This document shows, in pieces, positions 18,799 to 62,528 of a stretch of 64,000 bases of DNA. The notes under the pieces are model-generated. The model saw nothing but the letters and a program-made list of their open reading frames with translations. It was not told where the DNA came from and did no database searches. Position 1 is the first letter of the stretch, and the number at the start of each line of letters is the position of its first letter. Origin of the DNA: an uncultured bacterium (GTDB lineage: Bacteria > Bacillota > Clostridia > Christensenellales > QALW01); assembly GCA_905214315.1 (NCBI GenBank), contig CAJMLN010000002.1, positions 9,907 through 73,906 on the forward strand, written 5' to 3'. The position numbers and the translations under genes were made by a program.

Positions 18799-20292
18799 TT
18801 ATTGGTTCATTTTTCTTTTGTTTGTACGGGTTATTATCAAGCAAGCGCCTGATGCAATGAGCAAAGCAGCCCACAGAAACATAGAAGCATTATCCCCTGT
18901 TTCAGAGGCGGCAGCCTTAACAGGAATATCCTCACCCTTTGCGATTTCATATCCGCAAACCGCACAAACCGTATCACCGGTATAGCCCTTTTCGGTAGCG
19001 GTGGCTTCTTTTGTATTTATAACTTTGGGCGTATGGGCGAGCTTTTCTCCGTAAGCCACATTGCAAACCTCGCAAATTGCTTTTTCCCTGCAAGTGGCCT
19101 GACCGCCGGAATGTTTTTCTTGCGGTATGTTGCCGGTATCAACGGTCATCACATTATTGGCTTTGCAGGGGATCATAATCGTACCATTATTAACAATTGC
19201 GGTATTGTCCTCTCTTGTAATCGTTACGCCTTCAGCAAGCGTAAGTGTAACCCCCTCCGGAACAGTAAGTGTTCTTCCCTCGGTAACTGTCCAGTCAGTG
19301 GTCAGTGTGTAATCTGTAACAAAGGATACCTCTGTATTTTTGGCATTAATAAACCCCTGTATATCTGCATTGGCGTCCAAATCCACGGTAATGTTCCCGT
19401 TTGCAGTTCTGACTAACTGACGGTTGCTCTCAGCAAGAATCTTTACATTTCCCTTTAACGCAGCATCACCGGTAACATAGATGCCTGCCGGAGACTGCAC
19501 ATTGATGGTAGAATCTTTTATGTACAAAGTAGCGGCACTTGCAGGATTGTTGCCAACGTAAGTACCCCATCCTTCGCCCTTCAAAGTAACGCTGCTGTTG
19601 ACAATTTTCATATGATTGCTGGTTTTATTATAACCAACAGAGCTTAAACCGTAGGTAGCTCCCCCATCAATTGTGACGGTACTGTCATATATTTCAATAT
19701 TGCCATTCACATATACGGGATCCCAAAGGCCGGAATTGCCTCCGGGGATTTTTAAATCCACAACCGCGCCGTTTTTTACAATGAAATCATCATCGCAAAC
19801 AATACCGTTTGCATTGTCGCCTATCAAGGTAATTCCATCCACATAAATACTCTTATGAATACTGCCATCGGACATGATATTGCAATCTTTAACAGAAAGA
19901 CTGCCTCCGCCGGACAAGGTAAGCGAAACCTCATAGGCATTTTCCCAGCCGGAAGTAAAACCTTGCTGATAATTGGAAATCGTGTTTGTTCCCAATACAA
20001 CGATGCTGCTGTCCTTGTCAGTGGGAAGTACAATACCTTTGCCTGTTCCATCTCCGGAAATGGACATATTGTTAAGTGTCAAAGTATTGGTAGCGGGGTT
20101 ATAGGTGACTGTTGCGGAATCGCCGTCAGCGGTTCCCAGCACATCATTCTTATTTTCTTCGGTAACCTGAATACCATCTACCCAAACAGAATACAATGTG
20201 TTTGTTTCGGCTAAAGCCACGGTGGAAAGGACGCCAATCGCCATAGCCACACATACTATAACAACGAGTAATTTTGATACGGATGTCTTCAT
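18799..20292 (-). CDS. Beta-helix cell-surface protein with CxxCG stalk motifs and a TGD-TM-basic C-terminus
   Basis: 497 aa. Signal peptide (VLSTVALA-ET). Gly/Asn/Thr/Val-rich repetitive body typical of right-handed beta-helix adhesins. C-terminus has TEKGYTGDTVCAVCG, then TGDNASMFLWAALLIASGACLIITRTNKRKMNQ. Confidence 0.75.
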   Translation of the reverse strand: MKTSVSKLLVVIVCVAMAIGVLSTVALAETNTLYSVWVDGIQVTEENKNDVLGTADGDSATVTYNPATNTLTLNNMSISGDGTGKGIVLPTDKDSSIVVLGTNTISNYQQGFTSGWENAYEVSLTLSGGGSLSVKDCNIMSDGSIHKSIYVDGITLIGDNANGIVCDDDFIVKNGAVVDLKIPGGNSGLWDPVYVNGNIEIYDSTVTIDGGATYGLSSVGYNKTSNHMKIVNSSVTLKGEGWGTYVGNNPASAATLYIKDSTINVQSPAGIYVTGDAALKGNVKILAESNRQLVRTANGNITVDLDANADIQGFINAKNTEVSFVTDYTLTTDWTVTEGRTLTVPEGVTLTLAEGVTITREDNTAIVNNGTIMIPCKANNVMTVDTGNIPQEKHSGGQATCREKAICEVCNVAYGEKLAHTPKVINTKEATATEKGYTGDTVCAVCGYEIAKGEDIPVKAAASETGDNASMFLWAALLIASGACLIITRTNKRKMNQ

Positions 20293-22433: not shown

Positions 22434-23045
22434 ATGCTTACACGTCAATTTGATTACATAGTGCGGCCCGGCGATACGCTTTTCGGCATCGCGCTGAAAT
22501 TTAATGTTCCCCTGGAGACCCTGAAGAATGTGAACCGCCTGCCGGATCCGGACAGGATAGAGCCGGGGCAGGTTATTCAAGTGCCGGTCAGTGAGGAATT
22601 TTACCAAATCGCCCGCCTGGTGGAGGAGCAGTGCGGCCTCGCGCAGCCTTCAGACGCAGCGGCGGATGTGACAGCGGCTTCCGCCGCAGTAGAAACTGCC
22701 GCCCAGTGCGACTGCGACGAGCAGCCGCCGGCTGTTTTTTACCGGCGCCATCGGGTCCGCCGGGGCGATACGGTGTATCTTCTGGCTAAGGAATACGGCA
22801 CCACCACCGGAAATATTTTAAGCCTGAACCCGCAGATCACAGACGTCAGGAATTTGCAGATCGGCTCGGTTATCACCATACCCGTGCCGCCGGAGAATTC
22901 CTATATTTACGTGGTGCGGCCGGGGGATACGCTTTACAGCATTGCCCGGAGTCAGGGCGTTACCGTGGAGGATATTATGCGCTACAATTATATTGAAAGC
23001 GATTATACCGTATTCCCCGGGCAGCAGCTGCTGATTGTAAAATAA
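22434..23045 (+). CDS. Triple-LysM-domain protein without signal peptide (SafA-like spore-coat candidate)
   Basis: Three LysM units: YIVRPGDTLFGIALKF..., HRVRRGDTVYLLAKEY..., YVVRPGDTLYSIARSQ.... There is no N-terminal hydrophobic segment. Confidence 0.8.
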   Translation: MLTRQFDYIVRPGDTLFGIALKFNVPLETLKNVNRLPDPDRIEPGQVIQVPVSEEFYQIARLVEEQCGLAQPSDAAADVTAASAAVETAAQCDCDEQPPAVFYRRHRVRRGDTVYLLAKEYGTTTGNILSLNPQITDVRNLQIGSVITIPVPPENSYIYVVRPGDTLYSIARSQGVTVEDIMRYNYIESDYTVFPGQQLLIVK

Positions 23046-23390: not shown

Positions 23391-24875
23391 TTAAAGGAAG
23401 AAGCACTCTGTATCGATTTTACCGTAATAGGTGCGGTTTTTGCCCGCCCAGCAGGTATAGCGCACCGATTCGGAACAAAAATACAGGCTGTTGCCCACGG
23501 GCTTGATGCCCATGTATGCCTCAATGGCCGCGTACAGGTTGCTGGTGGAATAGGTTTCCACATCCAGGGTACTGTTGGCAGTGGAGAATTGGTTGGGGGA
23601 GAAGATGATCTCCCGAACCGAGGCCCCCGTACGCTGCACGCGGTTCATAATAACGCTGCCTACGGCCAGCTGACATTTATACGAACGGCCGCCGACCTCG
23701 CGTTTAATGATTTTCGCCATTAGCTTTACTTCGTTCATCTGCGCTTCGGAGAGCGTTTCCATGGCTTGGTTGATCAGGCTCATATTGGCCGAATTATAGC
23801 CGCTTGCCACCGAGGATGAGCCTGTATTCTTTGCCGAGAGCGCCGCGGTGATTTTGGACTGCGTTTTGCTGCCCACAATGCCGTCGGCGGAAAGGGAATT
23901 GGCCTTCTGGAAAGCGATGACCGCGTTTTTTGTGGCAGTATCAAAGCTGCCCGACGCGCTGCCGGAATAATAGCCTAATTTTTTCAGGTTGTTCTGCAGG
24001 GTTTTAACGGCCGAGCCGGAATCGCCGTAGCGCAGCGTGCCGGGCTTGGCGATGGATTCAGCCGTGCCGGATGCGGAGGAATCCGCCGTACCGGAGGCGC
24101 TGGTCTTGGCCGAAGCGGAATTCAGCGCTGCGATGGTCAGCTCGGCTACGGTGCCGGTTTGGCTGATGCGGTTGTTCTTTTGAAAGCTTTTTACCGCCGC
24201 CACCGTGATAGACCCGTAATAGCCGGTTACATGCTTGCTTTGCAGATATCCCAGCTCATACAGCCGCTGCTGCAGAGCCTTTACGCCGGCGTCCTCGTCG
24301 CCGCTGCGGTATACGCGCGAAGCGTCTATTTTGGTAATATTGAGCAGGGAATTGATTTTTTCAATCGTCAGCTTGGCGGCCACGCCGGTCTGGCTGATGC
24401 CGTTATCCTTCTGGAAGCTCTTTACCGCTTCTTCAGTAAGGGGACCGAAATACCCGGTTACGTGTTCTTCTTTTAAATAGCCCATTTCAAACAGCGCCTG
24501 CTGCAGGGCCTTTACGCCGCTGTTTTCGTCGCCGCTGCGGTAAACTTTTTCCGCGTCCAGCTTCTCCGGCTGCAGGAACATGGCCTCAACCGTCAGCTCC
24601 GCTACCATACCCGTTTGTGAAATGCCGTTGGCCTTCTGATACGCCTTTACGGCGTCCTCGGTGTTGGGTCCGAAAAACCCGGTGACGTACTTTTCTTCCA
24701 AAAATCCGCCGTCAGCCAGAGCCGCCTGCACCTCAATCACTTCCGCGCCCTTGCTGCCCAGCTTTAATACCGATGTGGGTACCGCAAGAACGGAAAGCAC
24801 GGTGACCGGCAGGATTGCCGCAAGCACCAGTATCGTATGTAAAATAAGCTTTTGTGCTCGTTTTAAATCGATCAT
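23391..24875 (-). CDS. Cell-wall hydrolase (SleB/CwlJ Hydrolase_2 family) with four PG_binding_1 repeats
   Basis: N-terminal TM/signal segment. Four copies of the unit G..V..LQ..L...GY......TG.FG..T..AVK.FQK.NGISQTG. The C-terminus (IIKREVGG...AVGSVIMNRV...FSPNQFS) resembles SleB. Confidence 0.8.
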   Translation of the reverse strand: MIDLKRAQKLILHTILVLAAILPVTVLSVLAVPTSVLKLGSKGAEVIEVQAALADGGFLEEKYVTGFFGPNTEDAVKAYQKANGISQTGMVAELTVEAMFLQPEKLDAEKVYRSGDENSGVKALQQALFEMGYLKEEHVTGYFGPLTEEAVKSFQKDNGISQTGVAAKLTIEKINSLLNITKIDASRVYRSGDEDAGVKALQQRLYELGYLQSKHVTGYYGSITVAAVKSFQKNNRISQTGTVAELTIAALNSASAKTSASGTADSSASGTAESIAKPGTLRYGDSGSAVKTLQNNLKKLGYYSGSASGSFDTATKNAVIAFQKANSLSADGIVGSKTQSKITAALSAKNTGSSSVASGYNSANMSLINQAMETLSEAQMNEVKLMAKIIKREVGGRSYKCQLAVGSVIMNRVQRTGASVREIIFSPNQFSTANSTLDVETYSTSNLYAAIEAYMGIKPVGNSLYFCSESVRYTCWAGKNRTYYGKIDTECFFL

Positions 24876-25208: not shown

Positions 25209-26792
25209 ATGAAGACAAAGACAAAATGGCTTTGCCTGCTTTTAACCGTATGCATGGCGGTATCAGGGCTGCTGCTTTCGGTACAGGCGGTGCCGGAAGC
25301 TGAGGTGCGCTACAGCAGGGACGGCGGCGCTACCTGGACAAACAGCACGCTGACCGATGCAATTTGGAATAACCTGATGCAGGATAACGTAATCATTGAG
25401 CTGCTTAAGAATGTAACGCTTGACGATGGCTATGGAATGACCTGCGGCGGCCCGAACAAAACGCTGACGATTGACGGCAAGGGCTTTACCGTTAAGCGCG
25501 GGGAAAATACCTCCGTTTTTTATACGATCGATCAGGCGGGCGCTACCGTTATTTTAAAAGACATTACCTTTGACGGCGGCGCGGTTTGGAACGGAGAGGA
25601 TCCCGCTTCGCGTACCGATGCCACCGGTGCCCTGGGGGGCAACTGTTACTTTTTCACTGTTTCCGGCGGCGCCTCTCTGATTCTGGAGGACGGAGCGGTC
25701 CTTCAAAACAATAACCTGGGCAATGCTTTTTATGGTGCGGCCGTCAATCTGGATGCCGGCGGCAAGCTGACGATGAAGCCCGGCGCGGCGATTTGCAACA
25801 ACGCGGCGCAGACGGGGGGAGCCGTATGCCTTGACGCGGGCGCGTCCTTTTTGATGGAGGGCGGCAGTATTTCCGGAAATTACGCCTATAACGGCGGCGG
25901 CGCAGTTTTTGCCGGGGGAAGCTTTACAATGAAGAACGGCGAGATCTGCGGCAACGCTTCGGGCAATAACGGCGGCGGCGTATGCGTATCCGGCGGCAGC
26001 TTTACCCTTGAAAACGGAAAAATCCATGAGAACAAAAGCAATGTGGGCGGCGGCGGTGTAACGCTTCTGTCCCAGGGCTCGTCCGCGCTGCTGCAGGGCG
26101 GCGAAATTTCCGGCAATACGATCGACGGCACGATGGGCGGCGGTATTTTGGTGAATAACGGCACCCTTTCGGTGAAAGGTACGGCGGTGGTAAGCGGAAA
26201 TAAGGCAAAAGAGAATGCCGTCAGCAATATTTATTTAGGGGAGGGCAAAACCATTACGGTTGCCGGTGTCCTCGAAGACGGCGCGCAGATGGGGATTACC
26301 ATGAAAACGCCGGGTGTCTTTACCGCCGGCTGGAGTGCCTACCAGGCGGAGACAGTGAAGCTTTCGGATTTTTTCAGCAGTGATAACAGCACGTACGGAG
26401 TTTGGAAGACCGCCGAGGGTGAAGCGGCTTTGCATGAGCATCAAACAGAGCTGCGCAATGATCGAAAGGAAACCTGCGGGGCGGACGGCTATACCGGGGA
26501 TGCGGTATGCACCCTGTGCGGAGAGGTTATAACGTCCGGCAGCAAAATCCCCGCCGCGGGGGCGCACAGCTTTGGCCAGTGGCAAACGGTAAAAGAAGCT
26601 ACGGCAGCAGAAGCAGGCCTTCAGGAGCGCGTTTGTTCGGTATGCGGTGCCAAAGAGACGGCGGAAATTCCGCAGAAGGCAGACAGCACGCAGTCCGGCG
26701 ATGTCGGCTCTGTGTGGATGCTGGCAGTACTTGGCGGCAGCGTTCTTCTGGCGGGCGCGCTTGCAGGGCGCAAAAGAAAAAGGGCGCTGTAA
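25209..26792 (+). CDS. Beta-helix (Pmp-like GGx repeat) surface protein with CxxCG motifs and an SGD-TM-basic C-terminus
   Basis: 527 aa with a signal peptide (LLLSVQA-VP). Repeats NGGGAVFAGGSFTMKNGEICGN / NGGGVCVSGGSFTLENGKIHEN / GGGGVTLL. C-terminus has GYTGDAVCTLCG and RVCSVCG, then SGDVGSVWMLAVLGGSVLLAGALAGRKRKRAL. Confidence 0.8.
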   Translation: MKTKTKWLCLLLTVCMAVSGLLLSVQAVPEAEVRYSRDGGATWTNSTLTDAIWNNLMQDNVIIELLKNVTLDDGYGMTCGGPNKTLTIDGKGFTVKRGENTSVFYTIDQAGATVILKDITFDGGAVWNGEDPASRTDATGALGGNCYFFTVSGGASLILEDGAVLQNNNLGNAFYGAAVNLDAGGKLTMKPGAAICNNAAQTGGAVCLDAGASFLMEGGSISGNYAYNGGGAVFAGGSFTMKNGEICGNASGNNGGGVCVSGGSFTLENGKIHENKSNVGGGGVTLLSQGSSALLQGGEISGNTIDGTMGGGILVNNGTLSVKGTAVVSGNKAKENAVSNIYLGEGKTITVAGVLEDGAQMGITMKTPGVFTAGWSAYQAETVKLSDFFSSDNSTYGVWKTAEGEAALHEHQTELRNDRKETCGADGYTGDAVCTLCGEVITSGSKIPAAGAHSFGQWQTVKEATAAEAGLQERVCSVCGAKETAEIPQKADSTQSGDVGSVWMLAVLGGSVLLAGALAGRKRKRAL

Positions 26793-26818: not shown

Positions 26819-26853
26819 TAAGGGGAAGGGCGAATTTGTCCTTCCCCTTTTGA
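26819..26853 (+). terminator. Rho-independent terminator
   Basis: AGGGGAAGG-N10-CCTTCCCCT hairpin at 26821-26848, followed by TTTT. Confidence 0.75.
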
Positions 26854-27053
26854 ACCGTATTTTTGTTTGGCGGGGTGATAGAAAACCCTTTTATTTTTAC
26901 GTTATTTTTGATATAATACTGATAAGTTTTATATTTTTACAAGAGGGCCTGACCGGAAAAATATGCAGCGGTCCTCCGGCGGAAGCCATATCGGGCACCG
27001 CGGGGACGTGTACCGGTACGCCTCAAAACCATAACAGAAAAGGAACGACGAAA

Positions 27054-27911
27054 ATGCAGAGCAAGCAAACGGAACAGGGACCCCGCAGCATTCAGTGGTA
27101 TCCCGGGCATATGGCCGCCGCCAAGCGCATGATGGAGGAAAACCTGAAGCTGGTGGATCTGATTCTGGAGCTGCGCGACGCCCGAATTCCCCATGCCAGC
27201 GCCAACCCGGATATCGGGAATTTTTCCAAGCCCAGGCTGATTTTATTAAATAAAAGCGATATGGCCGACGCCCGCAGGACCGCGCGCTGGCTGGCCTGGT
27301 TTCAGGCGCAGGGACAGCCCGCCCTGGCGATTACCGCCCGGCAGAAGCAGACGGAGGTGTTTGCTTTCATCGATCGCCTCTGCGCCGAAAAAATGGCTTA
27401 TTTTCAGGCCAGGGGCGTAAAAAAGAATCCGCGCGTGCTGGTGGCGGGTATTCCCAACACGGGCAAATCCACGCTGATTAACTCCCTTTGCGGCGCGGCA
27501 AGGGCAAAAACGGGGGACAGGCCCGGCGTAACGCGCGGCAAGCAGTGGATCAAGGCCCGCAATATCGAGCTGCTGGACACCCCCGGCCTGCTCTGGCCCC
27601 GCTTTGACGATCAGCAGTGCGCCCGGCGTATGGCGTTTACCGGCGCGGTGAACGACGAGGTCATGGATCTGGGCGAGCTGGCGCTGAGCCTGATCGATAC
27701 CCTGCGTCAGGCTTACCCGGACGCTCTGCCCGCGCGGTACGGCATCACCCCCGGTGAGCAGGCGATCGATGATTTTGACGCCATCTGCCGCCGGCGCGGT
27801 TTTCTGCTGAAAAACAGCGAAGCAGACTATGACCGCGGGGCGCGCGTATTATTAGATGAATTCCGCGGCGGAAAGTTAGGCCGCATAACACTGGAGGAGC
27901 CCAATGACTGA
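27054..27911 (+). CDS. rbgA: Ribosome biogenesis GTPase A (YlqF/RbgA)
   Basis: IQWYPGHMAAAKR start. Circularly permuted GTPase motifs (LLNKSDM ... GIPNTGKSTLIN ... DTPG). The ATG at 27054 follows AAAGGAA. The track ORF is extended by 68 codons. Confidence 0.9.
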   Translation: MQSKQTEQGPRSIQWYPGHMAAAKRMMEENLKLVDLILELRDARIPHASANPDIGNFSKPRLILLNKSDMADARRTARWLAWFQAQGQPALAITARQKQTEVFAFIDRLCAEKMAYFQARGVKKNPRVLVAGIPNTGKSTLINSLCGAARAKTGDRPGVTRGKQWIKARNIELLDTPGLLWPRFDDQQCARRMAFTGAVNDEVMDLGELALSLIDTLRQAYPDALPARYGITPGEQAIDDFDAICRRRGFLLKNSEADYDRGARVLLDEFRGGKLGRITLEEPND

Positions 27912-28506
27912 ACTTTGGTCCATAGAGGCGGCCCTGAAGGCCGAGGGCTTTAGCCGTATTGCCGGCATCGACGAGGCCGGCCGCGGTCCTCTGGCCGGGC
28001 CGGTGGCCGCCGCATGCGTGATTCTGGAGGAAAAGCACATTCCCGCGGGAATCAACGATTCCAAAAAGCTTTCCCCCAAAAAGCGGGAGGCGCTCTTTGA
28101 TGAAATTATGGAATCAGCCGTTGTCTCCTGCGCGCTGGTGGAGGAAAAGACGATCGATACCATCAATATCCTGCAGGCCACCAAGCTGGCCATGCGCCGC
28201 GCGGCGGAGGGGATGCGGCAAAAGCCGGATTTTATCCTGATCGACGGAAACTTTACCGTAGGCGCCTGCGGGCAGGAGCGGGCCGTAATCGGGGGCGACG
28301 CCAAAAGCGCGTCGATCGCCGCGGCCTCGATTATCGCCAAGGTGACGCGGGACCGGCTGATGCTGCGCCTGGACGAGGAATATCCGATGTACGGCTTTGC
28401 AAAGCACAAGGGCTACGGCACGCGGGAGCATATCGAAAACCTTTTAAAATACGGCCCGTGCCCGTATCATCGCCGCAGCTTTTTAAAAAAGATCTATGAA
28501 CCATAG
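27904..28506 (+). CDS. rnhB: Ribonuclease HII
   Basis: IAGIDEAGRGPLAGPV catalytic motif. 200 aa. Overlaps rbgA by 8 nt. Confidence 0.95.
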   Translation: MTELWSIEAALKAEGFSRIAGIDEAGRGPLAGPVAAACVILEEKHIPAGINDSKKLSPKKREALFDEIMESAVVSCALVEEKTIDTINILQATKLAMRRAAEGMRQKPDFILIDGNFTVGACGQERAVIGGDAKSASIAAASIIAKVTRDRLMLRLDEEYPMYGFAKHKGYGTREHIENLLKYGPCPYHRRSFLKKIYEP

Positions 28507-28849
28507 GGAAAAGGGCGCGCTGGGTGAGCAGGCGGCCTGCGCGTATCTGAAAAAACAGGGCTACGCCATCCTGGAGACCAACTATCACGCCTCCCGTCTG
28601 GCGGAGGTGGATATCATTGCCAGGGAAAAGAACACGCTGGTGTTTGTGGAGGTAAAGCTGCGTACCGGCACACAATTCGGCCGGGGCCGCGAGGCCGTTA
28701 CGCCTAAAAAGCAGCATTCCCTGCGCACGGCGGCGCTGCACTATCTGGCCTGCAGGGGTCTTCGGGAGGTTCCCTGCCGGTTTGACGTAATCGAGCTGTC
28801 TCTCTCCGGGGAGACGGCCGATATGGAACATATTAAAAACGCATTTTAA
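28496..28849 (+). CDS. yraN: YraN-family (UPF0102) endonuclease-like protein
   Basis: 117 aa. G...E..A..YL...GY.IL..N......EVDIIA......LVFVEVK.R pattern. Confidence 0.85.
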   Translation: MNHREKGALGEQAACAYLKKQGYAILETNYHASRLAEVDIIAREKNTLVFVEVKLRTGTQFGRGREAVTPKKQHSLRTAALHYLACRGLREVPCRFDVIELSLSGETADMEHIKNAF

Positions 28850-28861
28850 AGGACGGATTGC

Positions 28862-31800
28862 ATGAAAAGACGTATTGCGCTTATTTTGGTGCTGCTGCTG
28901 TTCTGCGGCTGCGCGAATGATCAGCCCCGGCAGGAGCTGAACGAGAATCTATTGCAGAATCCGGGCTTCGAGAGTGAAACCGGTATCGATATCACCGGCT
29001 GGCAGCTGGACCGGTACGATTCCTCGGAGCCGGTGGAGAATTACCGCGTAATCGCCGCGCAGGACGCGCCGCAGGGGGAAAATGCGCTGGCCATTACCAG
29101 CACCTCCTACAACGATGTGCGCCTGACGCAAACGGTTGCGGTTATGCCGTCTTCGTATTACTGCCTTTCGGCTATGGTGAAAACCGGTGAGATTACCCCC
29201 CGGGATGCAGATTCCGGTGCAAATATTTCTCTGCTTCAATCGTATTTTACCAGCGCGTACCTGCAGGGCGATACGGACTGGACAAAGGTTACCGTATACG
29301 GCTGTACCGGCGAGGATCTGCGCGAGGTAACCGTTTGCCTGCGGCTGGGCTTTTACAGCGCCGACTGCAAGGGCGAGGCATTTTTTGACGACGTTTCCTT
29401 TATCCGCATTGAAAAAGATCAGATTCCCGAAGGCGCCGCGGTGCTCTCCATGGAAAGCTTTTCCTTTGATTCTGTAAAAGAGGAGGACGCAAGGACGCCC
29501 GATGGAATCGGCGGCGCTGCTGCGCTGCGGGGAATTTTATATTTTGTGGTTTTAACCGCGTTTGCCGTGCTGCTGCTGAAAAAACAATGGGCCGAAAAGC
29601 TGCCTGCCTGGGCGTTTGCGGCGCTGCTGGGGGTGGCGCTGGTCATCAGGCTGATCTGCTCCCTTACCTATTACGGCTTTACGGTGGACGTAAACTGCTT
29701 TGCGGCATGGGGCTCCAAAATGGCCTCGGCCGGCCCTGCGGGCTTTTATTCCAAGGACTATTTCTGCGATTATCCGCCGCTGTACATGTTTGTGCTGGGG
29801 ATTCTCTCGGCCATAGGCTCGGCGTTTGACCTTTCACTGAACCAGGGCGCAGGCGTGCTTCTGCTGAAGCTGCCGGCTATGCTGTGCGATATTCTCTCGG
29901 CGCTGGTGCTTTATAAAATCGTAAAAAGACACGCCGGCCGCGGAGCCGCCGTTGCGGTGGCTCTGCTGTATGCGTTCAACCCGGCGGCCATCCTGAACAG
30001 CGCCCTGTGGGGGCAGGTAGACTCTGTTTTAGTTCTTTTGATGCTGCTGGCATTCTATCTGGTGGAAAGCGACCGCTTTGGCTGGGGCGTGCTGGTATTT
30101 TTTGCCGGACTTTTGGCCAAGCCCCAGGCGGTACTCTTCGGGCCGGTCATGCTCTTTGCGGCCGTGCGGGAAATGACGGTGCTCATCCGGGCGTTCCGGG
30201 CCGGGAACCGCCGCGAAGGTATCCGCCGGCTGCTTTGGGGCTGGGGCTCGGTGCTGGTCTGCGTTCTGGTGTTCCTGCTGTTTTCGGTTTGGATGAAGAA
30301 TGGCCAAAGCCCGGATTGGCTTTGGAATAAATATATGGAAACGCTCGGCTCCTACAACTACGCCACGCTCAATTCCTTTGGCTTTATGGGCCTGATCGGC
30401 GGACAGTGGGCGCCGGCGGAGAATATCAGCGCGCTGGGTATTTCCTATTCCCTTCTGGGCACGCTGCTGTTGGCGGCGGTGCTGCTCTATGCGCTGGGGC
30501 TGTTCCTGTGGCGGCTGGCAAAGGACAAAGGCTCTCTTTCCCCCAGCTGGTTCTGGCTGTTTGCCGCGCTGATTGCAGCGGGCGCGGTCACCTTCAGCAC
30601 CCGCACGCACGAGCGGTATATGTTCCCCGTGGCGGCGTTTTTGCTGGCGTCCTTCGCCTGCTTTCATGATTTCCGCCTGCTGGCACTGGGCGGCGGCTTT
30701 GCCCTTTGCAATTTCGTCAATACGGCCAGTGTGCTGTATATTTATGAGAAATTGGGCGTCTATATGGACGCCGACAGTCCGCTGATGCTGATCGGTTCGC
30801 TGATAACGGTCGTGCTGTTTTTGATATTGGCCGTGGTGGCGGCGGATTTGACCAGAAACGGCGTAAAACAGAGAAAGGAAATGTCTATGAATCAGCCTGT
30901 TAAGCCTGAAAAGGATTTTCGCCTGCGGAACCTGCTGCGGCGCAGGGAGTCCCGTCTGCCGAAGGTAAAACCGCGGGATGCGCTGCTTTGCGGTGCGATT
31001 ACCGTGCTGTACGCGCTCCTGGCATTTACAAATTTGGGAAATACGGATTCCCCCCAAACCTATTGGTATCCTTCTAACCACACCTACTATACCGTGGCGG
31101 ATTTGGGGCAGGAGCAGTCGGTGGATGAGATCTGGTATAACGCGGCTGCCGCATCCGGTTCCTTTTCCCTTTCGTATTCCTCCGACGGGCAGCAGTATAC
31201 CCCTTTGACTACCGTACGCCTGCGCCCGAACGATGTGGATACCTGGAGCGCCGCCCTGCGGCAGGAATTTTCCGCCCGATATATCAAAGTAGAGACGACA
31301 GTTGCCGGTACCAGTTTGAATGAGCTGGCCATCGTAAACGACGGCGTACTGCTTCCGGCAGAAGAGGCTGTGTCCTGGACCGCCCCCGTGGATGCGCAGA
31401 CGGCTGCCTTCAGCAATCTGTTCGACTGCCCCGAAAGCTTTTCCCAGGATCTGCTGCATACCGTGCCGGAGACCGTCTGGACAAGCGGAAGCACCTATGT
31501 CCTTACCCTGAAGGAGCCGGCTGATATCAGCAGTATTTACGGTTTTGTGGACCAGGGCAATCCGTATGCGTCGGTAACTCTTCAGGCATACAGCGAGGAA
31601 ACGCTGGAATGGGTGGATTTTGCCGTAATTCCCGGGGGGAATGCATATGCCTGGGTGGAAGCGAATAAAGTTTTACTGGACGAGGCGTTTTTGATTGACC
31701 GCCTGCGCCTTGTAAGTATGGAAGGGCAGATAACCCTTGGCGAGCTGGTATTGCTGGATCAAGGCGGCCGGGTGCTTGAAATAGAAAGCATTTGTGACGA

Positions 31801-33694
31801 GGCCGGCGCCGTGTGCGCTCCGGAGGCGGCGATATATAACTGCTTTGACGAACCGGAAAAAAGCGCGGCTCACCAGAAGCTGCTGCAGCTTTTTTGGAAT
31901 ACGGAGCCCTGGGAAATTACCACCTGCGGGGACTTTGTAGTGGCCGATTTCGGCCGTACGTATTCGATTGACCGGGGCTATTTCTTTACCAGTGTATGCT
32001 CGGGCAGCTTTTCGGTGTACTATTCCTATGACGGCGAGCTGTGGTCTGAGCCGGAGCAGCATAAAGTAGAGGCCGGGCAGCTGTATTACTGGCACGGCCT
32101 GCCCTCGGACGGAAACACGTATCGATCCCTGCAGGCACGGTTTGTAGCCGTAGTAGCCGATACCCCGTACCTGCGCTTTTTGGAGATGGGCTTTTTTGAA
32201 AACAGCGAGGATGAAACCGTGATTCCCATTGCGGAAATCCGCTGCGGCAGAGAGGGGGAGGACTGCGGCTGCAATCTGTTTGATGAGCAGAGTCTTGTTC
32301 CCACGCGCCCTTCGTACATGAATAGTATGTACTTTGATGAGATTTATCACGCCCGCACCGCCTATGAGAGTGCCAACGGCTTGTCCATTTACGAGTGGAC
32401 CCATCCGCCGCTGGGCAAGGATATGATGGCCTGGTGCGTATCGCTGATGGGCATGACGCCCTTTGCCTGGCGCTTTGCCGGAACGCTGGCGGGCGTGCTG
32501 ATGCTGCCGGCTATGTACTTTTTAGGCCTGCTGCTGTTTAAAAAACGCACCTGGGCCACGATGCTCTGCGCGCTGATGGCGCTGGACGGCATGCACTTTG
32601 TGCAGACGCGCATCGCGACGATCGATTCCTTCGGCGTGCTGTTTATCATTCTGATGTTTTTGTTCATGTACTGGTACTACAGCATCAGCTTTTACGATAA
32701 GCCCCTGTGGAAAACGTTCATTCCCCTGGGGCTGTGCGGCCTCAGCTTCGGGCTGGGGGCGGCCAGCAAGTGGATCGGCCTCTATGCCGGCGCAGGGCTT
32801 GCCGTACTGTTCTTTATCACCCTGGGCCGGCGCTACAGCGAATACCGGACGGCCAAAGAGGCGCTGAAAACGCCGGATCCGCCCCAGAAGGAATATCTGC
32901 AGCATATCGTGGACCGTTTTACCCTTAACACCTGCTATACGCTGCTGTTCTGTATTCTGGTGTTTATCATCCTTCCGGTCATCATCTACTGCGCCTCCTA
33001 TTATCCGTACTGGAACGCGGCAGGAGAATCCCGCCCGTGGTATCAGATCATTCTGGATAACCAAAGCGCAATGTTCAACTATCATTCCAAGCTGACGGCC
33101 ACCCATGCGTTCCAGTCCGACTGGTACACCTGGCCGGTGATCTACCGCCCGATGTTCTTCTATATGGGGCGCGAGCTCCCCGCGGGGCAGATGGAGTGTA
33201 TTTCCTCCTTCGGCAATCCGGCCATCTGGTATATGGGTCTTGTATGCACCTTAATCAGTCTTGGCCTGTTTATAAAAAAGGCGATAACCGGCTCACCCCT
33301 GGTCTCCTCCGCGGAAGGGGATTCCCGCTTTTTAAAGCTGTTTGCCGCCGGGGATGAAGCGGATCCGGATCGGAGCGAGCGCGACCGGCGCCTGCTGCTG
33401 TTCTGCCTGCTGGGGCTGGCGTGCAACCTGCTGCCCTGGGTAGGCATCAGCCGGTGCATCTTCATTTACCATTACTTTGCTTCGGTGCCGTTTATTATGA
33501 TCTTTACGGTATATATCTTCCGCAACATCTGCCGGTACAATAAAAAGACGGGGGCGGCGCTGACGATCGCCTTCCTGGTTCTGGCGGCGGTGCTGTTTGT
33601 GATGTTCCTGCCCGTATGGTCGGGTGCGGAGGTTTCCAAGGATTACGTCAACACCTACCTGAAATGGTTCCCCTCCTGGGTATTCGGAAGCTGA
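28862..33694 (+). CDS. Giant lipoprotein fusing an N-terminal GT-C glycosyltransferase module and a C-terminal GT39/PMT-type mannosyltransferase, with CBM-like and discoidin-like domains
   Basis: Single 1,610-aa ORF. Lipobox LLFCGC. CBM-like segment at ~25-190. Polytopic module with DYPPLYMF (D303) and NSALWGQVDS. PMT hallmarks NLGNTDSP (N724), FDEIYHARTA (D1159-E1160), HPPLGK and a C-terminal 4-TM region. Confidence 0.8.
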   Translation: MKRRIALILVLLLFCGCANDQPRQELNENLLQNPGFESETGIDITGWQLDRYDSSEPVENYRVIAAQDAPQGENALAITSTSYNDVRLTQTVAVMPSSYYCLSAMVKTGEITPRDADSGANISLLQSYFTSAYLQGDTDWTKVTVYGCTGEDLREVTVCLRLGFYSADCKGEAFFDDVSFIRIEKDQIPEGAAVLSMESFSFDSVKEEDARTPDGIGGAAALRGILYFVVLTAFAVLLLKKQWAEKLPAWAFAALLGVALVIRLICSLTYYGFTVDVNCFAAWGSKMASAGPAGFYSKDYFCDYPPLYMFVLGILSAIGSAFDLSLNQGAGVLLLKLPAMLCDILSALVLYKIVKRHAGRGAAVAVALLYAFNPAAILNSALWGQVDSVLVLLMLLAFYLVESDRFGWGVLVFFAGLLAKPQAVLFGPVMLFAAVREMTVLIRAFRAGNRREGIRRLLWGWGSVLVCVLVFLLFSVWMKNGQSPDWLWNKYMETLGSYNYATLNSFGFMGLIGGQWAPAENISALGISYSLLGTLLLAAVLLYALGLFLWRLAKDKGSLSPSWFWLFAALIAAGAVTFSTRTHERYMFPVAAFLLASFACFHDFRLLALGGGFALCNFVNTASVLYIYEKLGVYMDADSPLMLIGSLITVVLFLILAVVAADLTRNGVKQRKEMSMNQPVKPEKDFRLRNLLRRRESRLPKVKPRDALLCGAITVLYALLAFTNLGNTDSPQTYWYPSNHTYYTVADLGQEQSVDEIWYNAAAASGSFSLSYSSDGQQYTPLTTVRLRPNDVDTWSAALRQEFSARYIKVETTVAGTSLNELAIVNDGVLLPAEEAVSWTAPVDAQTAAFSNLFDCPESFSQDLLHTVPETVWTSGSTYVLTLKEPADISSIYGFVDQGNPYASVTLQAYSEETLEWVDFAVIPGGNAYAWVEANKVLLDEAFLIDRLRLVSMEGQITLGELVLLDQGGRVLEIESICDEAGAVCAPEAAIYNCFDEPEKSAAHQKLLQLFWNTEPWEITTCGDFVVADFGRTYSIDRGYFFTSVCSGSFSVYYSYDGELWSEPEQHKVEAGQLYYWHGLPSDGNTYRSLQARFVAVVADTPYLRFLEMGFFENSEDETVIPIAEIRCGREGEDCGCNLFDEQSLVPTRPSYMNSMYFDEIYHARTAYESANGLSIYEWTHPPLGKDMMAWCVSLMGMTPFAWRFAGTLAGVLMLPAMYFLGLLLFKKRTWATMLCALMALDGMHFVQTRIATIDSFGVLFIILMFLFMYWYYSISFYDKPLWKTFIPLGLCGLSFGLGAASKWIGLYAGAGLAVLFFITLGRRYSEYRTAKEALKTPDPPQKEYLQHIVDRFTLNTCYTLLFCILVFIILPVIIYCASYYPYWNAAGESRPWYQIILDNQSAMFNYHSKLTATHAFQSDWYTWPVIYRPMFFYMGRELPAGQMECISSFGNPAIWYMGLVCTLISLGLFIKKAITGSPLVSSAEGDSRFLKLFAAGDEADPDRSERDRRLLLFCLLGLACNLLPWVGISRCIFIYHYFASVPFIMIFTVYIFRNICRYNKKTGAALTIAFLVLAAVLFVMFLPVWSGAEVSKDYVNTYLKWFPSWVFGS

Positions 33695-33708: not shown

Positions 33709-34782
33709 ATGCGTTATAAAAGCTATAAACGGTTAAAGCGCGCCGCCAAGGCGCTTACGGCCTGCTCGGTTGTTCTGCTGCTGCTGTTTTCGCTCTATGC
33801 TTCCGTGGTATGGTTCAACGCGCCGTATCTTTCCACCCTGCGGGATATCTGGATTGAAACCGCAATGACCACCAATGACCATCAGTGGCTGGCCACCGGG
33901 CTCTTCCCCCAGTGGCTGATTGAGGACGTGATGCGCCGTCAGGTGCGCACCGACGATGTGCTGGGCGGCCTGACGCTGCCGGAAAAGGATCCCGATTCCT
34001 CCGAGGTCTTTGCACCGCAGGAGGATATTCTGGGGCAGAAGCAGCTTACCGTGGGCGGCAAGGACGCCCTGGGCAATAAGGTGCTGGTTAACGACATTGA
34101 ACAGGGCATTGTCATTTCCCAGGTAAAGGGCAGCACGTTTGTCGGGCAGCTGGTGATGATCGACGATCCCTCCCGCGTATTCGTGGCCACCACCAACCGC
34201 AAGGGTGTGTGGGGTCAGTGCGTGGGCGAGCTGATGGAGGAGCACAACGCCGTAATCGGCATCAACGGCAGCGGCTTTGAGGATATCGATGGCCACGGCA
34301 AGGGCGGCGTGATCAACGGGCTCTGCTATTCCATGGGGGAGCCGTGGGGCACCAACAACGGCTGGCCTGCTATTGTGTTTGATGAAAACGACCGCCTGAT
34401 TGTGGGAAAGCTTGCCGATTGGGAGGCCTACCACGTGCGCGACGGCGTCCAGTTTGGCCCGGTGCTCATCTGCGACGGCGAACAGCTGATTACAAAATCC
34501 GCCGGCTACGGCATGCAGCCGCGCACCATTGTGGCGCAGCGTGCCGACGGCGTGGTGTTCTTTATGATTGTGGACGGCCGGCAGGTGGGGTATTCCATCG
34601 GCGCCACCTTAGGCGAATGCGCCGATATTTTAATGGCCTACGGCGCGGTAAACGCCGCCTCCTGTGACGGCGGCTCCTCCAGCGTGCTGGGATATAACGG
34701 AAAGGTCATCAATATTCCCTCTACACCAATGAAGGATACCGGCCGGTATCTGCCCAACGCGTTTTTAGTCAGGAAAAAATAA
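33709..34782 (+). CDS. Membrane-anchored phosphodiester glycosidase family protein (NAGPA/DUF2233-like)
   Basis: 357 aa from MRYKSYKRLKR, followed by a TM helix. The C-terminal ...MAYGAVNAASCDGGSSSVLGYNGKVIN... is typical of the family. SD AAGGAGG lies 6 nt before the ATG at 33709, 15 nt after the GT stop. Confidence 0.75.
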   Translation: MRYKSYKRLKRAAKALTACSVVLLLLFSLYASVVWFNAPYLSTLRDIWIETAMTTNDHQWLATGLFPQWLIEDVMRRQVRTDDVLGGLTLPEKDPDSSEVFAPQEDILGQKQLTVGGKDALGNKVLVNDIEQGIVISQVKGSTFVGQLVMIDDPSRVFVATTNRKGVWGQCVGELMEEHNAVIGINGSGFEDIDGHGKGGVINGLCYSMGEPWGTNNGWPAIVFDENDRLIVGKLADWEAYHVRDGVQFGPVLICDGEQLITKSAGYGMQPRTIVAQRADGVVFFMIVDGRQVGYSIGATLGECADILMAYGAVNAASCDGGSSSVLGYNGKVINIPSTPMKDTGRYLPNAFLVRKK

Positions 34783-47243: not shown

Positions 47244-49694
47244 ATGAAACGGATGTATTTGCTCTGCAACGCACATATCGATCCTATGTGGCAGTGGGAA
47301 TGGAAGGAGGGCGTCGGCGCGGCGATCTCCACGTTCCGCGTGGCCGCCGAGCTTTGCGAGCAGTATGACGCCTTTATTTTTAACCACAACGAGGCGCTGC
47401 TGTATGAATGGATTGAAGAGTTTGAGCCTGCGCTGTTTGCCCGGATTCAGGCCCTGGTAAAAAAGGGAAACTGGCATATCATGGGCGGCTGGTATCTTCA
47501 GCCCGACTGCAATATGCCCACCGGCGAATCCTTTGCGCGCCAGATCAGCGCCGGAAGACGCTATTTTAAAGAAAAATTCGGCGCCGAGCCTTCCACCGCC
47601 GTTAATTTTGACCCCTTCGGTCACACAAAGGGCATTGTGCAAATTATGGAAAAAAGCGGCTTTGACAGCTATATTATCTGCCGCCCCTACGATCATGTTC
47701 CCGATACGGATCGCTTCCTGTGGAAGGGCTTTGCCGGCAGCCAGGTGCGCGTGCTGCGTCTGCCGTGCTACAATTCGCGGCTGGGCCACGCGGTGGAGCG
47801 CATAGGCGAGGAGCTGGAAAAGCAAAAAAATGAAGAATACGGCGTAATCCTATGGGGGGTGGGCAATCATGGCGGCGGTCCCTCTAAAATTGATTTGGAA
47901 GAAATCGCAAAGCTGATAGCGTCTTCAGAGAATATTGAGATCCTGCACGTGGCCCCGGAAGAATTTTTTGCCGCCTGCGGGGAAGAGAAATGGCCGGAGC
48001 ACAGCAATTCGCTGCAGCATACGATGGTGGGCTGCTACAGCTCGCAAATACGCATGAAGCAGCTGCACCGCAAGCTGGAGCATGAGCTGCTTTCAACGGA
48101 AAAAATGGTTTCGGCCGCGGCGGCGCAGGGCTTGATGGACTATCCCCGCGCGGCGCTGGAGACGGCGTGGAAGGATCTGATGTTTGCCCAGTTCCACGAC
48201 ATTCTGCCCGGCTCGTCGATTCAGCCGGTGGAGGAGGCGGGCCTTCAGCTGCTGAGCCACGGTCTGGTTGAGGCCGACCGGCTGAAAACAAAGGCGTTTT
48301 TCAAGCTTTCCGCCGGACAGAAGCGCGCGAAGGACGGAGAGATTCCGGTTCTGGTTTACAATCCGCATCCGTTTGCCGCAGAGGAGGATATCGTCTGCGA
48401 GCTGATGCTGGCCGATCAGAACTGGAATGATGAATTTATTGATATTTCGGTATTCGATGAGAACGGCCTTTCGGTGCCCGCCCAGACGGAAAAAGAGTAC
48501 AGCAATATTCCGATTCAGTGGCGCAAGCGCGTGGCCTTTCGCGCAAAGCTCACGCCCTTCGGCATGACGCGCTTTGACCTGCGTACAAGCGCGCTTCCCT
48601 GCCGAAAGGTGCCTGAGGCAAAGCGGGAGGGCGACTGCTTTGTGTTTGAGGGCTGCCGGTACCGTGCAAAATTAAATACCGCCACCGGCCTTCTGGAAAG
48701 CTATGAGGCCGACGGAAAGGAATATTTAAAGCAGCCCACAGGCCGGCTGCTTGTCATTGCCGACGACGAGGATCCCTGGGGTATGCGCGTGCAGGGGTAT
48801 CAGGACGTGCAATATGCTTTTGCACTGGCTTCCCCGAAGGAGACGGCGGCGATCTGCAGTCTTTCGGTTCCCGCCCTGGCGCCGGTGCATATCGTGGAGG
48901 ATGGTCCCGTGCGTACAATTGCCGAGTGTGTGTTTGTCTCCTCCGCGGGGCAAGCCGTGGTGCGGTACACCTTCCCCAGGCAGGACGGCTATATCGATAT
49001 CCATATCCGCCTGATTACGGCGGCAAAAAACACAATGTTCAAATACGTTCTGGATACCGTGCTTGACGACGGTGCTCTTTTGGGTAAAACTGCGTATGGC
49101 TTGGATGACCTGCGGCAGAACGGCCTGGAATGTGTGGCGCAGGAATATGTACTGCTGCATACCCCGGAGCATGCTCTGAGCGTAGCCAATACCGGCACCT
49201 ATGCTTTAAGCTCTGAAAACGGCGCGCTGCTGCTGACCCTGCAGCGTACGCCCGCCTATTGCGCGCATCCGCTGGAGGGACGGCAGATTCTGCCGCAGGA
49301 CCGTTTCCATGAGCACAGCGATCAGGGCGAGCGGCAGTTCTTTTTCCGGGTGCAGGCCTCCTCCGCGAGGGAGCGTCGGCAAAAGATCAATGCGGAGGCG
49401 CTGTTGCTGAATCAGGCGCCGACGGCGGTCTGCTTCTTCCCGCCCGAAAGCGGCGAAAAGCCCCTGCCGGGCTGCCTGACGGATAACCCTGTCATCGAGC
49501 TTTCCTCCCTGAAGGAGGCCTTTGACGGCGACGGTTACACCCTGCGCCTGTTTAACCCCGACAGCGAAGAGCAGACCGTATGCGTAACGCTGCCGGCGCT
49601 TGAAGCCTCCTTTACCGCGGCCCTGATGCCCCTGGAGGTGCTCTCCTACCGCATCCGCGGCGGCAAGGCGGAGCCGTGCGCGCTTACGGACTGA
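47244..49694 (+). CDS. Glycoside hydrolase family 38 alpha-mannosidase (cytoplasmic)
   Basis: N-terminal LCNAHIDPMWQWEW...GGWYLQPDCNMP matches the GH38 catalytic-domain pattern. 816 aa, no signal peptide. Confidence 0.85.
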   Translation: MKRMYLLCNAHIDPMWQWEWKEGVGAAISTFRVAAELCEQYDAFIFNHNEALLYEWIEEFEPALFARIQALVKKGNWHIMGGWYLQPDCNMPTGESFARQISAGRRYFKEKFGAEPSTAVNFDPFGHTKGIVQIMEKSGFDSYIICRPYDHVPDTDRFLWKGFAGSQVRVLRLPCYNSRLGHAVERIGEELEKQKNEEYGVILWGVGNHGGGPSKIDLEEIAKLIASSENIEILHVAPEEFFAACGEEKWPEHSNSLQHTMVGCYSSQIRMKQLHRKLEHELLSTEKMVSAAAAQGLMDYPRAALETAWKDLMFAQFHDILPGSSIQPVEEAGLQLLSHGLVEADRLKTKAFFKLSAGQKRAKDGEIPVLVYNPHPFAAEEDIVCELMLADQNWNDEFIDISVFDENGLSVPAQTEKEYSNIPIQWRKRVAFRAKLTPFGMTRFDLRTSALPCRKVPEAKREGDCFVFEGCRYRAKLNTATGLLESYEADGKEYLKQPTGRLLVIADDEDPWGMRVQGYQDVQYAFALASPKETAAICSLSVPALAPVHIVEDGPVRTIAECVFVSSAGQAVVRYTFPRQDGYIDIHIRLITAAKNTMFKYVLDTVLDDGALLGKTAYGLDDLRQNGLECVAQEYVLLHTPEHALSVANTGTYALSSENGALLLTLQRTPAYCAHPLEGRQILPQDRFHEHSDQGERQFFFRVQASSARERRQKINAEALLLNQAPTAVCFFPPESGEKPLPGCLTDNPVIELSSLKEAFDGDGYTLRLFNPDSEEQTVCVTLPALEASFTAALMPLEVLSYRIRGGKAEPCALTD

Positions 49695-52242: not shown

Positions 52243-52471
52243 GCGGATTCCGCCTGTCCGCGCCTGTTTTTTGCCGGAGGGGCGTGAATTTCTGTCCGCG
52301 AGATGTGCATTGCAAAAGACGGAAGACCCGGAAGCAGGCACGCAGCCGTTTTTGATAAATACTAAGGATTTTTTGTTGTATTTTGCGGCGGGGCATGTTA
52401 TACTGTTCTTATACATATATCAGTATATGTGTTTTGGTATGCCGATGAAATCAATAAGAAGGAGATTTTTT

Positions 52472-62324: not shown

Positions 62325-62419
62325 TGGCGGAGACAGAGAGATTTGAACTCTCGCGCCGGTAACTCCCGACCTACACCCTTAGCAGGGGCGCCCCTTCGGC
62401 CAAACTTGGGTATGTCTCC
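62325..62419 (-). tRNA. tRNA-Ser (anticodon GCU)
   Basis: Acceptor GGAGACA/TGTCTCC. Anticodon stem CGCCC/GGGTG with loop CTGCTAA. Long variable arm. T-arm GAGAG-TTCAAAT-CTCTC. CCA is encoded. Confidence 0.9.
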
Positions 62420-62439
62420 GAATAAACAATATGCGCTTG

Positions 62440-62528
<89 letters not shown>

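Follow-up and report, generated by a model that had tools for sequence, protein, structure and literature searches.

The studied systems that stand closest to the protein treated here are the family 39 (GT39) glycosyltransferase Cbes_1864 of Caldicellulosiruptor bescii, from the class Clostridia, and the Pgf system of Streptococcus mutans. Cbes_1864 is described as consisting of a signal or transmembrane segment, a carbohydrate-binding-type domain in loop 1 (residues 32-124) and a GT-C core, and its deletion abolishes the glycosylation of all exoproteins (PMC6151902). In Streptococcus mutans, adhesins are O-glycosylated by the Pgf system, which includes PgfS and two membrane proteins that have been called GT-C type, one of them of the PMT_2 family (PMC12041528, PMC5856776). 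For the MIR domain of the eukaryotic protein O-mannosyltransferases (PMTs), a role has been proposed (PMC7759382). Further GT39 proteins are on record from Acetivibrio clariflavus, where a carbohydrate-binding module of family 16 (CBM16) is attached to GT39 according to the CAZyme table of a review, and from Ruminiclostridium cellulolyticum, in whose proteome a GT39 protein was detected. Here we analyse a gene of an uncultured bacterium of the Christensenellales (Clostridia; GenBank assembly GCA_905214315.1, contig CAJMLN010000002.1, positions 9,907 to 73,906). This stretch of 64,000 nucleotides is referred to as the window, and all coordinates count from its first letter. The gene encodes a single chain that, as judged from profiles and structural models, combines two different GT-C glycosyltransferases with four domains of sugar-binding type.

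With a probability of roughly 55%, we think that this enzyme glycosylates outside the cytoplasm in two steps, with polyprenyl-phosphate sugars as donors and a protein as acceptor. The part of this reading that concerns the enzyme itself, namely that it possesses two active polyprenyl-phosphate-sugar GT-C modules serving one extracytoplasmic pathway, we regard as likely.

The fused reading frame and its module order

The open reading frame (ORF) occupies positions 28862..33694 on the plus strand, begins with ATG and comprises 1610 codons (1610 residues) with zero internal stops; the purine-rich sequence aaaggacgg lies directly 5' of its start codon. The initial annotation, made from the letters of the sequence, had described one uninterrupted ORF with a series of motifs, and all of these are indeed present: LLFCGC at residues 12-17, NPGFE at 33, FFDDVSF at 174, DYPPLYMF with D303, NSALWGQVDS at 379, NLGNTDSP with N724, SARYIKVE at 804, IDRLRLVS at 945 and QARFVAVV at 1091, followed in the PMT part by FDEIYHARTA with D1159-E1160 and by HPPLGK at 1181. 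The chain opens with a lipobox signal peptide and a beta-sandwich that resembles CBM16 and CBM4. After an extra transmembrane helix come a GT-C module of the ALG6/PIG-M/GT87 type and a basic linker, which leads to the first transmembrane helix (TM1) of the PMT. Three discoidin domains that are homologous to one another, the DE motif and the full GT39 PMT core make up the rest.

The two halves of the protein were modelled separately with AlphaFold2 (AF2) from alignments of 56 sequences, the C-terminal half covering residues 696-1610. The mean predicted local distance difference test (pLDDT) value was 89.3 for the N-terminal and 91.7 for the C-terminal half. Searches of the PDB with the single sequence gave weak results, and family profiles were required for the remote matches reported below. 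Invariant columns were read from 56 aligned sequences, with identities down to 27-30% in the N-terminal and 36-40% in the C-terminal half.

The PMT module

The GT39 PMT core extends over positions 32297..33691 (plus strand, residues 1146-1610) and is supported by Pfam, Foldseek and profile comparisons alike. Three Pfam families exceed their gathering scores in this half: PMT_4TMC (PF16192, residues 1398-1606) at 2e-27 with 96.4 bits against a cut-off of 32.4, PMT (PF02366) at 2.5e-10 with 40.8 bits against 22.7, and PMT_2 at 6.5e-9. The seven top Foldseek matches of the C-terminal half are the fungal enzymes Pmt4, Pmt1 and Pmt2 with E-values from 1e-15 to 2e-11, and the family profile recovers Pmt4 in the PDB at 1.5e-22. 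In the family profile alignment, the consensus myFDEiYhARTaYE...HPPLGK stands opposite vvFDEvhFgk...HPPLGK of Pmt4 from Chaetomium thermophilum. The catalytic-type DE motif, D1159-E1160 (32336..32341, plus strand), opens the helix of the first extracytoplasmic loop (residues 1158-1172). Both residues are invariant, as are R1165, the segment from H1181 to K1186 (HPPLGK), D1242, H1245, R1250 and D1255, among others. The PMT assignment of the initial annotation therefore holds, and on the strength of profile and model the C-terminal module is identified as a GT39 PMT.

TM1 of this module (30971..31027, plus strand, residues 704-722) appears as helix 9-27 of the C-half model and as a peak of hydrophobicity. 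It ends near residue 722, whereas the DE motif follows at residue 1159, so that about 435 residues, which form three beta-sandwiches in the model, lie between them; an insert of some 420 residues had been estimated before. No MIR domain was detected in the fusion protein with Pfam at E <= 1, and bacterial PMTs are not known to have one either.

The N-terminal GT-C module

The polytopic region ahead of the PMT, GT-C module 1, covers positions 29588..30859 (plus strand, residues 243-666) and resembles ALG6, PIG-M and GT87 enzymes according to Pfam, profile and Foldseek results. When scanned alone, it matches PMT_2 at 7e-6, with 26.8 bits against a cut-off of 26.1, and its family profile matches GPI mannosyltransferase 1 at 1.3e-9. 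Its fold matches ALG6 (6snh, E 1.7e-5, target-normalised TM-score 0.64), GPI-MT-I (9wno, target-normalised TM-score 0.70) and also PIG-U. Some homologues have Pfam matches to GT87 or PIG-U, while the protein of the window itself matches PMT_2 only. The earlier proposal of a GT-C enzyme at residues 220-690 is thus borne out, and the N-terminal polytopic module is recognised, again by profile and predicted fold, as a second and different GT-C glycosyltransferase.

The invariant residues of this module are D276, the segment F301-C-D303-Y-P-P306, D343, W383, Q385, D387, K420, Q422 and the segment H583-E584-R585-Y586. D276 and D303 lie in the loop after the first transmembrane helix of the module. 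The profile alignment to GPI-MT-I spans the later helices only, and these two residues can therefore not be aligned to a known catalytic aspartate. As acidic and basic residues are invariant in both GT-C modules, the protein displays the pattern expected of two working active sites, and this sequence pattern speaks against the idea that either half is there for structure alone.

The possibility has to be considered that only the PMT half is catalytic and that the N-terminal GT-C module serves as a scaffold or as the partner in a pseudo-dimer, comparable to PIG-U in GPI transamidase or to the second subunit in Pmt1-Pmt2. The fold matches include PIG-U, whose GT-C fold is non-catalytic, the Pfam support for the module is borderline, and PMTs work as dimers (PMC7759382). 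However, the invariant acidic, basic and aromatic residues of the D276, FCDYPP, WGQxD, KPQ and HERY elements are concentrated in the first outside loop and in loops further on, and they are kept at 27-30% identity. In addition, an operon with a split form of the protein, which is described below, provides two undecaprenyl-phosphate (Und-P)-sugar synthases for several GT-C proteins. We think that a non-catalytic N-terminal module is improbable.

The beta-sandwich domains

The first of the four sandwiches precedes the GT-C module at positions 28943..29449 (plus strand, residues ~28-196). It is predicted to be extracytoplasmic and is all-beta in the AF2 model with pLDDT >90. Its Foldseek matches 4d0q, 2zey, 3oea, 2xom and 1k42, whose target-normalised TM-scores lie at 0.64-0.74, are CBM70, CBM16, CBM61 and CBM4 modules. 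Its family profile matches the CBM70 of a hyaluronate lyase at 6.9e-5, and the Pfam family CBM_4_9_1 remains below threshold (17.6 bits against a cut-off of 27). The CBM-like module of the initial annotation, for which a target-normalised TM-score of about 0.7 was obtained with the CBM16, CBM4, CBM61 and CBM70 folds, is thereby supported at the level of the fold.

The other three sandwiches fill the insert between TM1 and the DE motif. Domain d1 (31043..31411, plus strand, residues 728-850) matches the discoidin family F5/8 type C (PF00754) at 2.2e-10, with 41.2 bits against a cut-off of 28.2, is a beta-sandwich in the model and gives weak PDB sequence matches to CBM32; by its sequence it qualifies as a bona fide F5/8 type C domain. 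Domain d2 (31445..31831, plus strand, residues 862-990) is divergent and has no Pfam match, but is linked to the others by hhalign and by its beta-sandwich fold in the model. Domain d3 (31868..32266, plus strand, residues 1003-1135) is related to d1 by hhalign and matches PF00754 below threshold at E 0.022. The hhalign probabilities are 99.5% for d1 and d3, 97.6% for d2 and d1, and 96.9% for d2 and d3. Together with the score of d1 and the sandwiches in the model, these values confirm three discoidin-like repeats, as had been suspected. All four beta-sandwiches are of carbohydrate-binding type by sequence and model, and sugar binding is a predicted property of them.

Membrane anchoring and topology

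A signal peptide with the lipobox-like motif LLFCGC is encoded at positions 28862..28912 (plus strand, residues 1-17), which makes Cys17 a candidate for lipidation. On inspection of the pattern, LFCGC fits the relaxed lipobox of Gram-positive bacteria. In most of the 31 closest homologues, a cysteine follows G, A or S at position 17-29, past a hydrophobic stretch. Across the family, however, the lipobox-type pattern is found in 36 of 115 members, and the distant members carry ordinary signal peptides or anchors. By its motif the protein is a candidate lipoprotein, and the lipobox is conserved in the close clade only.

An extra transmembrane helix (29498..29581, plus strand, residues 213-240), which is a helix in the model and a peak of hydrophobicity, is followed by the short basic loop KKQWAEK. 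An Arg/Lys-rich linker between the two enzymes (30860..30970, plus strand, residues 667-703) is characterised by low pLDDT and a basic composition, and we infer from the positive-inside rule that it is cytoplasmic. The topology was derived from this rule and from the known topology of GT-C enzymes, together with the hydrophobicity profile and the helices of the models. It is self-consistent over the whole chain, leading from the signal peptide via the outside CBM, the extra helix and the GT-C module to the inside linker, and then via TM1 to the discoidin domains and the DE motif on the outside. Because the extra helix returns the chain to the cytoplasm, the first GT-C module can start in the usual in-to-out orientation. 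The whole protein probably has about 25-27 membrane helices and a lipid anchor.

Family distribution and split forms

Within a large family from Clostridia, the fusion is the prevailing architecture, and hundreds of related bacteria have it. All 115 listed homologues of at least 1200 residues contain the CBM, the GT-C module, a transmembrane helix, one or more beta-sandwiches and the PMT in that order; a few family members are devoid of the N-terminal CBM. An exhaustive search with the profile of the N-terminal module yielded 10,766 representatives at E <= 1e-3, of which 2,342 reach E <= 1e-30, and both GT-C modules were found in 105 of the 157 top relatives. The homologues come from uncultured Clostridia of human and animal guts, and databases list them under unspecific names ('discoidin domain-containing protein', 'phospholipid carrier-dependent glycosyltransferase', 'glycosyltransferase family 39 protein' or 'Gpi18-like mannosyltransferase').

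The number of sandwiches ahead of the DE motif varies within the family. Three are present in the closest clade (at least 42% identity), two (d1 and d3) in four proteins, and a single one, which aligns with d3, in the bulk of the family with about 1300 residues. Indeed, the columns of d3 are covered by 54 of the 56 aligned homologues, making d3 common to nearly the whole family, whereas d2 is confined to the three-domain clade and is missing from the two-domain and one-domain relatives. As read from these alignments, both the fusion and a single sandwich in front of the DE motif go back to the origin of the family, and what is peculiar to the closest clade is the triplication alone. One subgroup (P0077 and P0085-P0103, about 1425-1436 residues) carries some 130 extra residues without a Pfam match between PMT and PMT_4TMC; in P0085 this segment is located at residues ~1081-1210, roughly where eukaryotic PMTs have their MIR domain.

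In some organisms the two halves are encoded by separate genes. The clearest case is a contig from sequencing run SRR16297624 in the Logan collection (L019:236-12539), in which a split version of the fusion lies inside a glycosylation operon with all genes in one direction. The order is GtrA, a GT2 glycosyltransferase, a PMT_2-type GT-C protein of 636 residues, a CBM-like protein of 317 residues, a protein of 670 residues, one of 980 residues and a second GT2. The 670-residue protein consists of CBM and GT-C and is homologous to the N-terminal half of the fusion; the adjoining gene encodes the 980-residue protein, which consists of CBM, discoidin and PMT and is homologous to the C-terminal half. 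The first GT2 has PgfS (3e-70) and ArnC as its best models, and the second is likewise PgfS-like (5.5e-89). A methyltransferase and another GT2 are also part of this operon. In two further loci (L020 and L022/L023), an N-half gene is directly followed by a gene that begins like the C-terminal half, and in another (L026) a GtrA-family gene is found directly 3' of the fused gene.

These comparisons identify the fusion, at the level of sequence, as the fused form of a two-gene module. Since the halves are adjacent in some genomes and fused in others, both enzymes would act in one pathway, and the PgfS/ArnC-type synthases alongside the split halves indicate Und-P monosaccharides as donors. With regard to the machine for extracytoplasmic O-glycosylation with two transferases that the initial annotation had envisaged, the split operon with GtrA and PgfS/ArnC-like synthases speaks for the two-transferase part, whereas protein O-glycosylation is deduced only.

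The occurrence of split two-gene versions in other organisms could also be taken to mean that the long ORF results from an assembly or frameshift error that joined two or three genes. Against this, the same protein of 1610 residues was assembled with the same neighbours in at least six independent sequencing runs, and homologues at 88, 86, 80, 72 and ~50% identity show an unchanged length and module order, with no interruption at 86%, 72% and ~50%. Moreover, the topology calls for the linker and TM1, both of which are conserved. The independent assemblies and the conserved order in the homologues, including all those of at least 1200 residues, exclude such an artefact as far as assembled sequence allows, and we consider its probability to be close to nil.

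Genomic context

Directly 5' of the fused gene lie ylqF (GTPase), rnhB (RNase HII) and yraN (UPF0102), assigned by Pfam at 26850..28849 on the plus strand. This synteny anchor is found in 16 of 18 loci from metagenome-assembled genomes (MAGs). Relatives at 36-38% identity keep it too, in a slot that reads rplS-ylqF-rnhB-yraN-X-comM-dprA-topA. The same slot is seen in L024, L025, L026 and L001-L016, a synteny that is unusually stable for an envelope enzyme. The conserved slot points to vertical inheritance as a core gene and says little on function. A search across the loci for conserved glycosylation neighbours of the fused gene returned housekeeping genes and was uninformative.

On the 3' side, a gene for an NAGPA-type phosphodiester glycosidase with an N-terminal membrane anchor (33709..34782, plus strand; PF09992 at 8e-32) begins 14 nt past the stop codon of the fusion. 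Its start would be M32 of a longer ORF that opens at 33616 and overlaps the fusion; this agrees with gene calls of 357 residues, and the start at 33616 is probably not the real one. The gene is likely an operon partner of the fusion in the close clade only, as it is found downstream in L001, L005 and L012 and not in the loci at ~50% identity. The downstream genes accordingly vary from NAGPA-comM in the close clade to polA-coaE-SLT at ~50% identity and comM-dprA-topA and similar arrangements.

The window also carries PolC, comM and uvrBA and looks like a Clostridia chromosome. A GH38 alpha-mannosidase gene at 47244-49694 (plus strand) may be relevant if the glycans are based on mannose. A BspA-type leucine-rich-repeat protein with the lipobox-like N-terminus LSGVSC is encoded at 12290-13975 (minus strand), and in L024 the fused gene has LRR_5 proteins on its flanks as well. 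Three predicted secreted proteins of 497-693 residues, encoded at 25209-26792 (plus strand), 18799-20292 (minus strand) and 59883-61964 (minus strand), have signal peptides, no significant Pfam family and no Ser/Thr/Pro-rich linker. Upstream of the cluster are two cell-wall genes, at 23391-24875 (minus strand) and 22434-23045 (plus strand), a pair that comprises a SleB-type hydrolase with four PG_binding_1 repeats and a protein with three LysM domains. The only Pfam match of a 764-residue protein at 52271-54565 (plus strand) is a zinc-ribbon near its N-terminus, and in L007 comparable zinc-ribbon proteins are encoded downstream of the fusion. Two adjacent tRNA genes at 62328-62528 (minus strand), far from the fusion, are the sole Rfam matches in the window.

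Proposed function

As a working model, Und-P-hexose or Und-P-hexoses would be made at the cytoplasmic face by PgfS/GtrB/ArnC-like GT2 enzymes encoded elsewhere in the genome, and would then be flipped outward. The C-terminal GT39 module could put the first sugar, via D1159-E1160, on an exported acceptor, most likely on Ser or Thr of secreted or surface proteins. The N-terminal ALG6/PIG-M/GT87-like module would then add a further sugar to the same product, and the CBM16/4-like domain together with the three discoidin domains, whose array leaves the membrane immediately beside the catalytic loop, may hold the glycosylated acceptor or a wall glycan near the active sites. Such a role of the beta-sandwiches would be functionally analogous to that of the eukaryotic MIR domain. 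The model builds on the domain identities and folds, on the topology logic, on the fact that catalytic-type residues and the fusion are conserved, and on split operons that contain Und-P-sugar synthases; from these we infer which sugars are donated, in which order the two steps occur, what the acceptor is and what the beta-sandwiches do.

Several points weigh against a two-step enzyme with a protein acceptor. PIG-M and ALG6, the relatives of the N-terminal module, act on lipid-linked glycans and not on proteins, and PimE, another of its relatives, acts on lipid-linked glycans as well. The CBM-bearing GT-C enzymes AftD and EmbC build wall polysaccharides. NCBIfam NF058602, the Pmt equivalog, reaches 50 bits against a cut-off of 800. 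No polyprenyl-phosphate-sugar synthase, flippase or obvious Ser/Thr-rich acceptor was found in the 64-kb window, and as the gene stands among housekeeping genes, its context says little on the acceptor. No member of the family has been characterised by experiment.

The same enzymatic logic could be at work on a different acceptor, namely a glycopolymer or lipoglycan of the cell envelope such as a secondary wall polysaccharide or a teichoic-acid-like polymer, which the GT-C modules would decorate or extend and which, as it grows, would be bound by the CBM and discoidin domains. We regard this as a serious rival because it would account for four carbohydrate-binding-type domains, for the action of the kin PIG-M and ALG6 on lipid-linked glycans, for a core-genome slot kept down to ~36% identity, as for an envelope housekeeping function, and for the membrane-anchored phosphodiester glycosidase 14 nt downstream in the close clade; a weak NCBIfam match to a 'cell surface glycopolymer formation protein' family points the same way. 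However, the glycosidase neighbour is not conserved beyond the close clade, the characterised GT39 enzymes are all known to glycosylate Ser/Thr of proteins, and the DE/HPPLGK site is PMT-like and not ArnT- or Emb-like. In addition, the studied GT39 of the class Clostridia with a CBM in loop 1 affects protein glycosylation (PMC6151902). A glycopolymer acceptor appears possible, but less likely than a protein.

Both precedents, the GT39 of C. bescii and the Pgf system of S. mutans, support a protein acceptor, and we favour the two-step glycosylation of exported proteins. A more far-reaching version, which we put forward as tentative and doubtful in its full extent, would see the fusion as the central enzyme of a general system for protein O-glycosylation that is vertically inherited in a large clade of gut and rumen Clostridia. 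In this system the PMT would initiate and the ALG6/PIG-M-like GT-C extend the glycan, the two modules would form a built-in pseudo-heterodimer, and the discoidin array would be an independently evolved counterpart of the MIR domain.

Protein and envelope glycosylation of anaerobic gut Firmicutes is poorly charted, and the fusion points to a widespread and unexplored surface-glycosylation system. If the two-step reading is true, a single gene with two separable active sites would offer a genetic handle to remove a whole surface-glycosylation pathway in many commensals. The protein would then also exemplify, in nature, both the coupling of GT-C enzymes within a single chain and the insertion of carbohydrate-binding domains right beside the active site of a PMT. 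As a double GT-C on one chain, with four binding domains and a gene in the core genome, the fusion is well worth experimental study.

Comparison with known systems

A limited literature search returned nothing on fused, tandem or dual GT-C enzymes, on discoidin domains combined with GT39 or on the fusion family. The initial annotation had presented the layout as one without a known characterised counterpart, and no paper that describes the fusion was indeed found; the layout is not rare, however, given its dominance in a large Clostridia family.

With Pmt1, Pmt2 and Pmt4 and with actinobacterial Pmt, the fusion shares the GT-C fold, the PMT and PMT_4TMC domains and the succession of DE and HPPLGK. 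It differs from them by the ~435 residues between TM1 and the DE motif, where PMTs have a few, by the lack of MIR and by the second GT-C ahead. With ALG6, PIG-M (GPI-MT-I) and GT87 it shares the fold of the N-terminal module, as the profile match to GPI mannosyltransferase 1 (1.3e-9) illustrates, but the module of the fusion is bacterial, stands behind a CBM and an extra transmembrane helix and is joined to a PMT. The family joins two enzyme classes known above all from the endoplasmic reticulum of eukaryotes, the PMTs and the ALG/PIG-type GT-C enzymes. The mycobacterial enzymes AftD and EmbC likewise combine a polytopic GT-C core with extracytoplasmic carbohydrate-binding beta-sandwiches, but belong to other GT families, with a single catalytic module and with CBMs at the C-terminus; they were not among the top Foldseek fold matches of either half.

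The S. mutans Pgf system (PgfS, PgfM1, PgfE and PgfM2) follows the same logic of a GT2 Und-P-sugar synthase and two GT-C proteins, and PgfS is the best match of the GT2 proteins in the split operon of L019. The Pgf parts are separate and lack CBM and discoidin domains, whereas the fusion is one chain and has no adjacent synthase in the window. Cbes_1864 and the fusion are both GT39 enzymes of the class Clostridia with a beta-sandwich at the same position, a likeness that is taken from the published description. Cbes_1864 is a stand-alone protein of 556 residues with one small domain and possesses neither a second GT-C nor an N-terminal CBM. A sugar-binding domain in loop 1 of a Clostridia GT39 has therefore already been reported (PMC6151902), and the layout of the fusion is not unique to this genome. 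All parts of the protein belong to known superfamilies (GT39, ALG6/PIG-M-like GT-C, discoidin/CBM32-like and CBM16/4-like domains), and their combined layout, although uncharacterised, is real and widespread.

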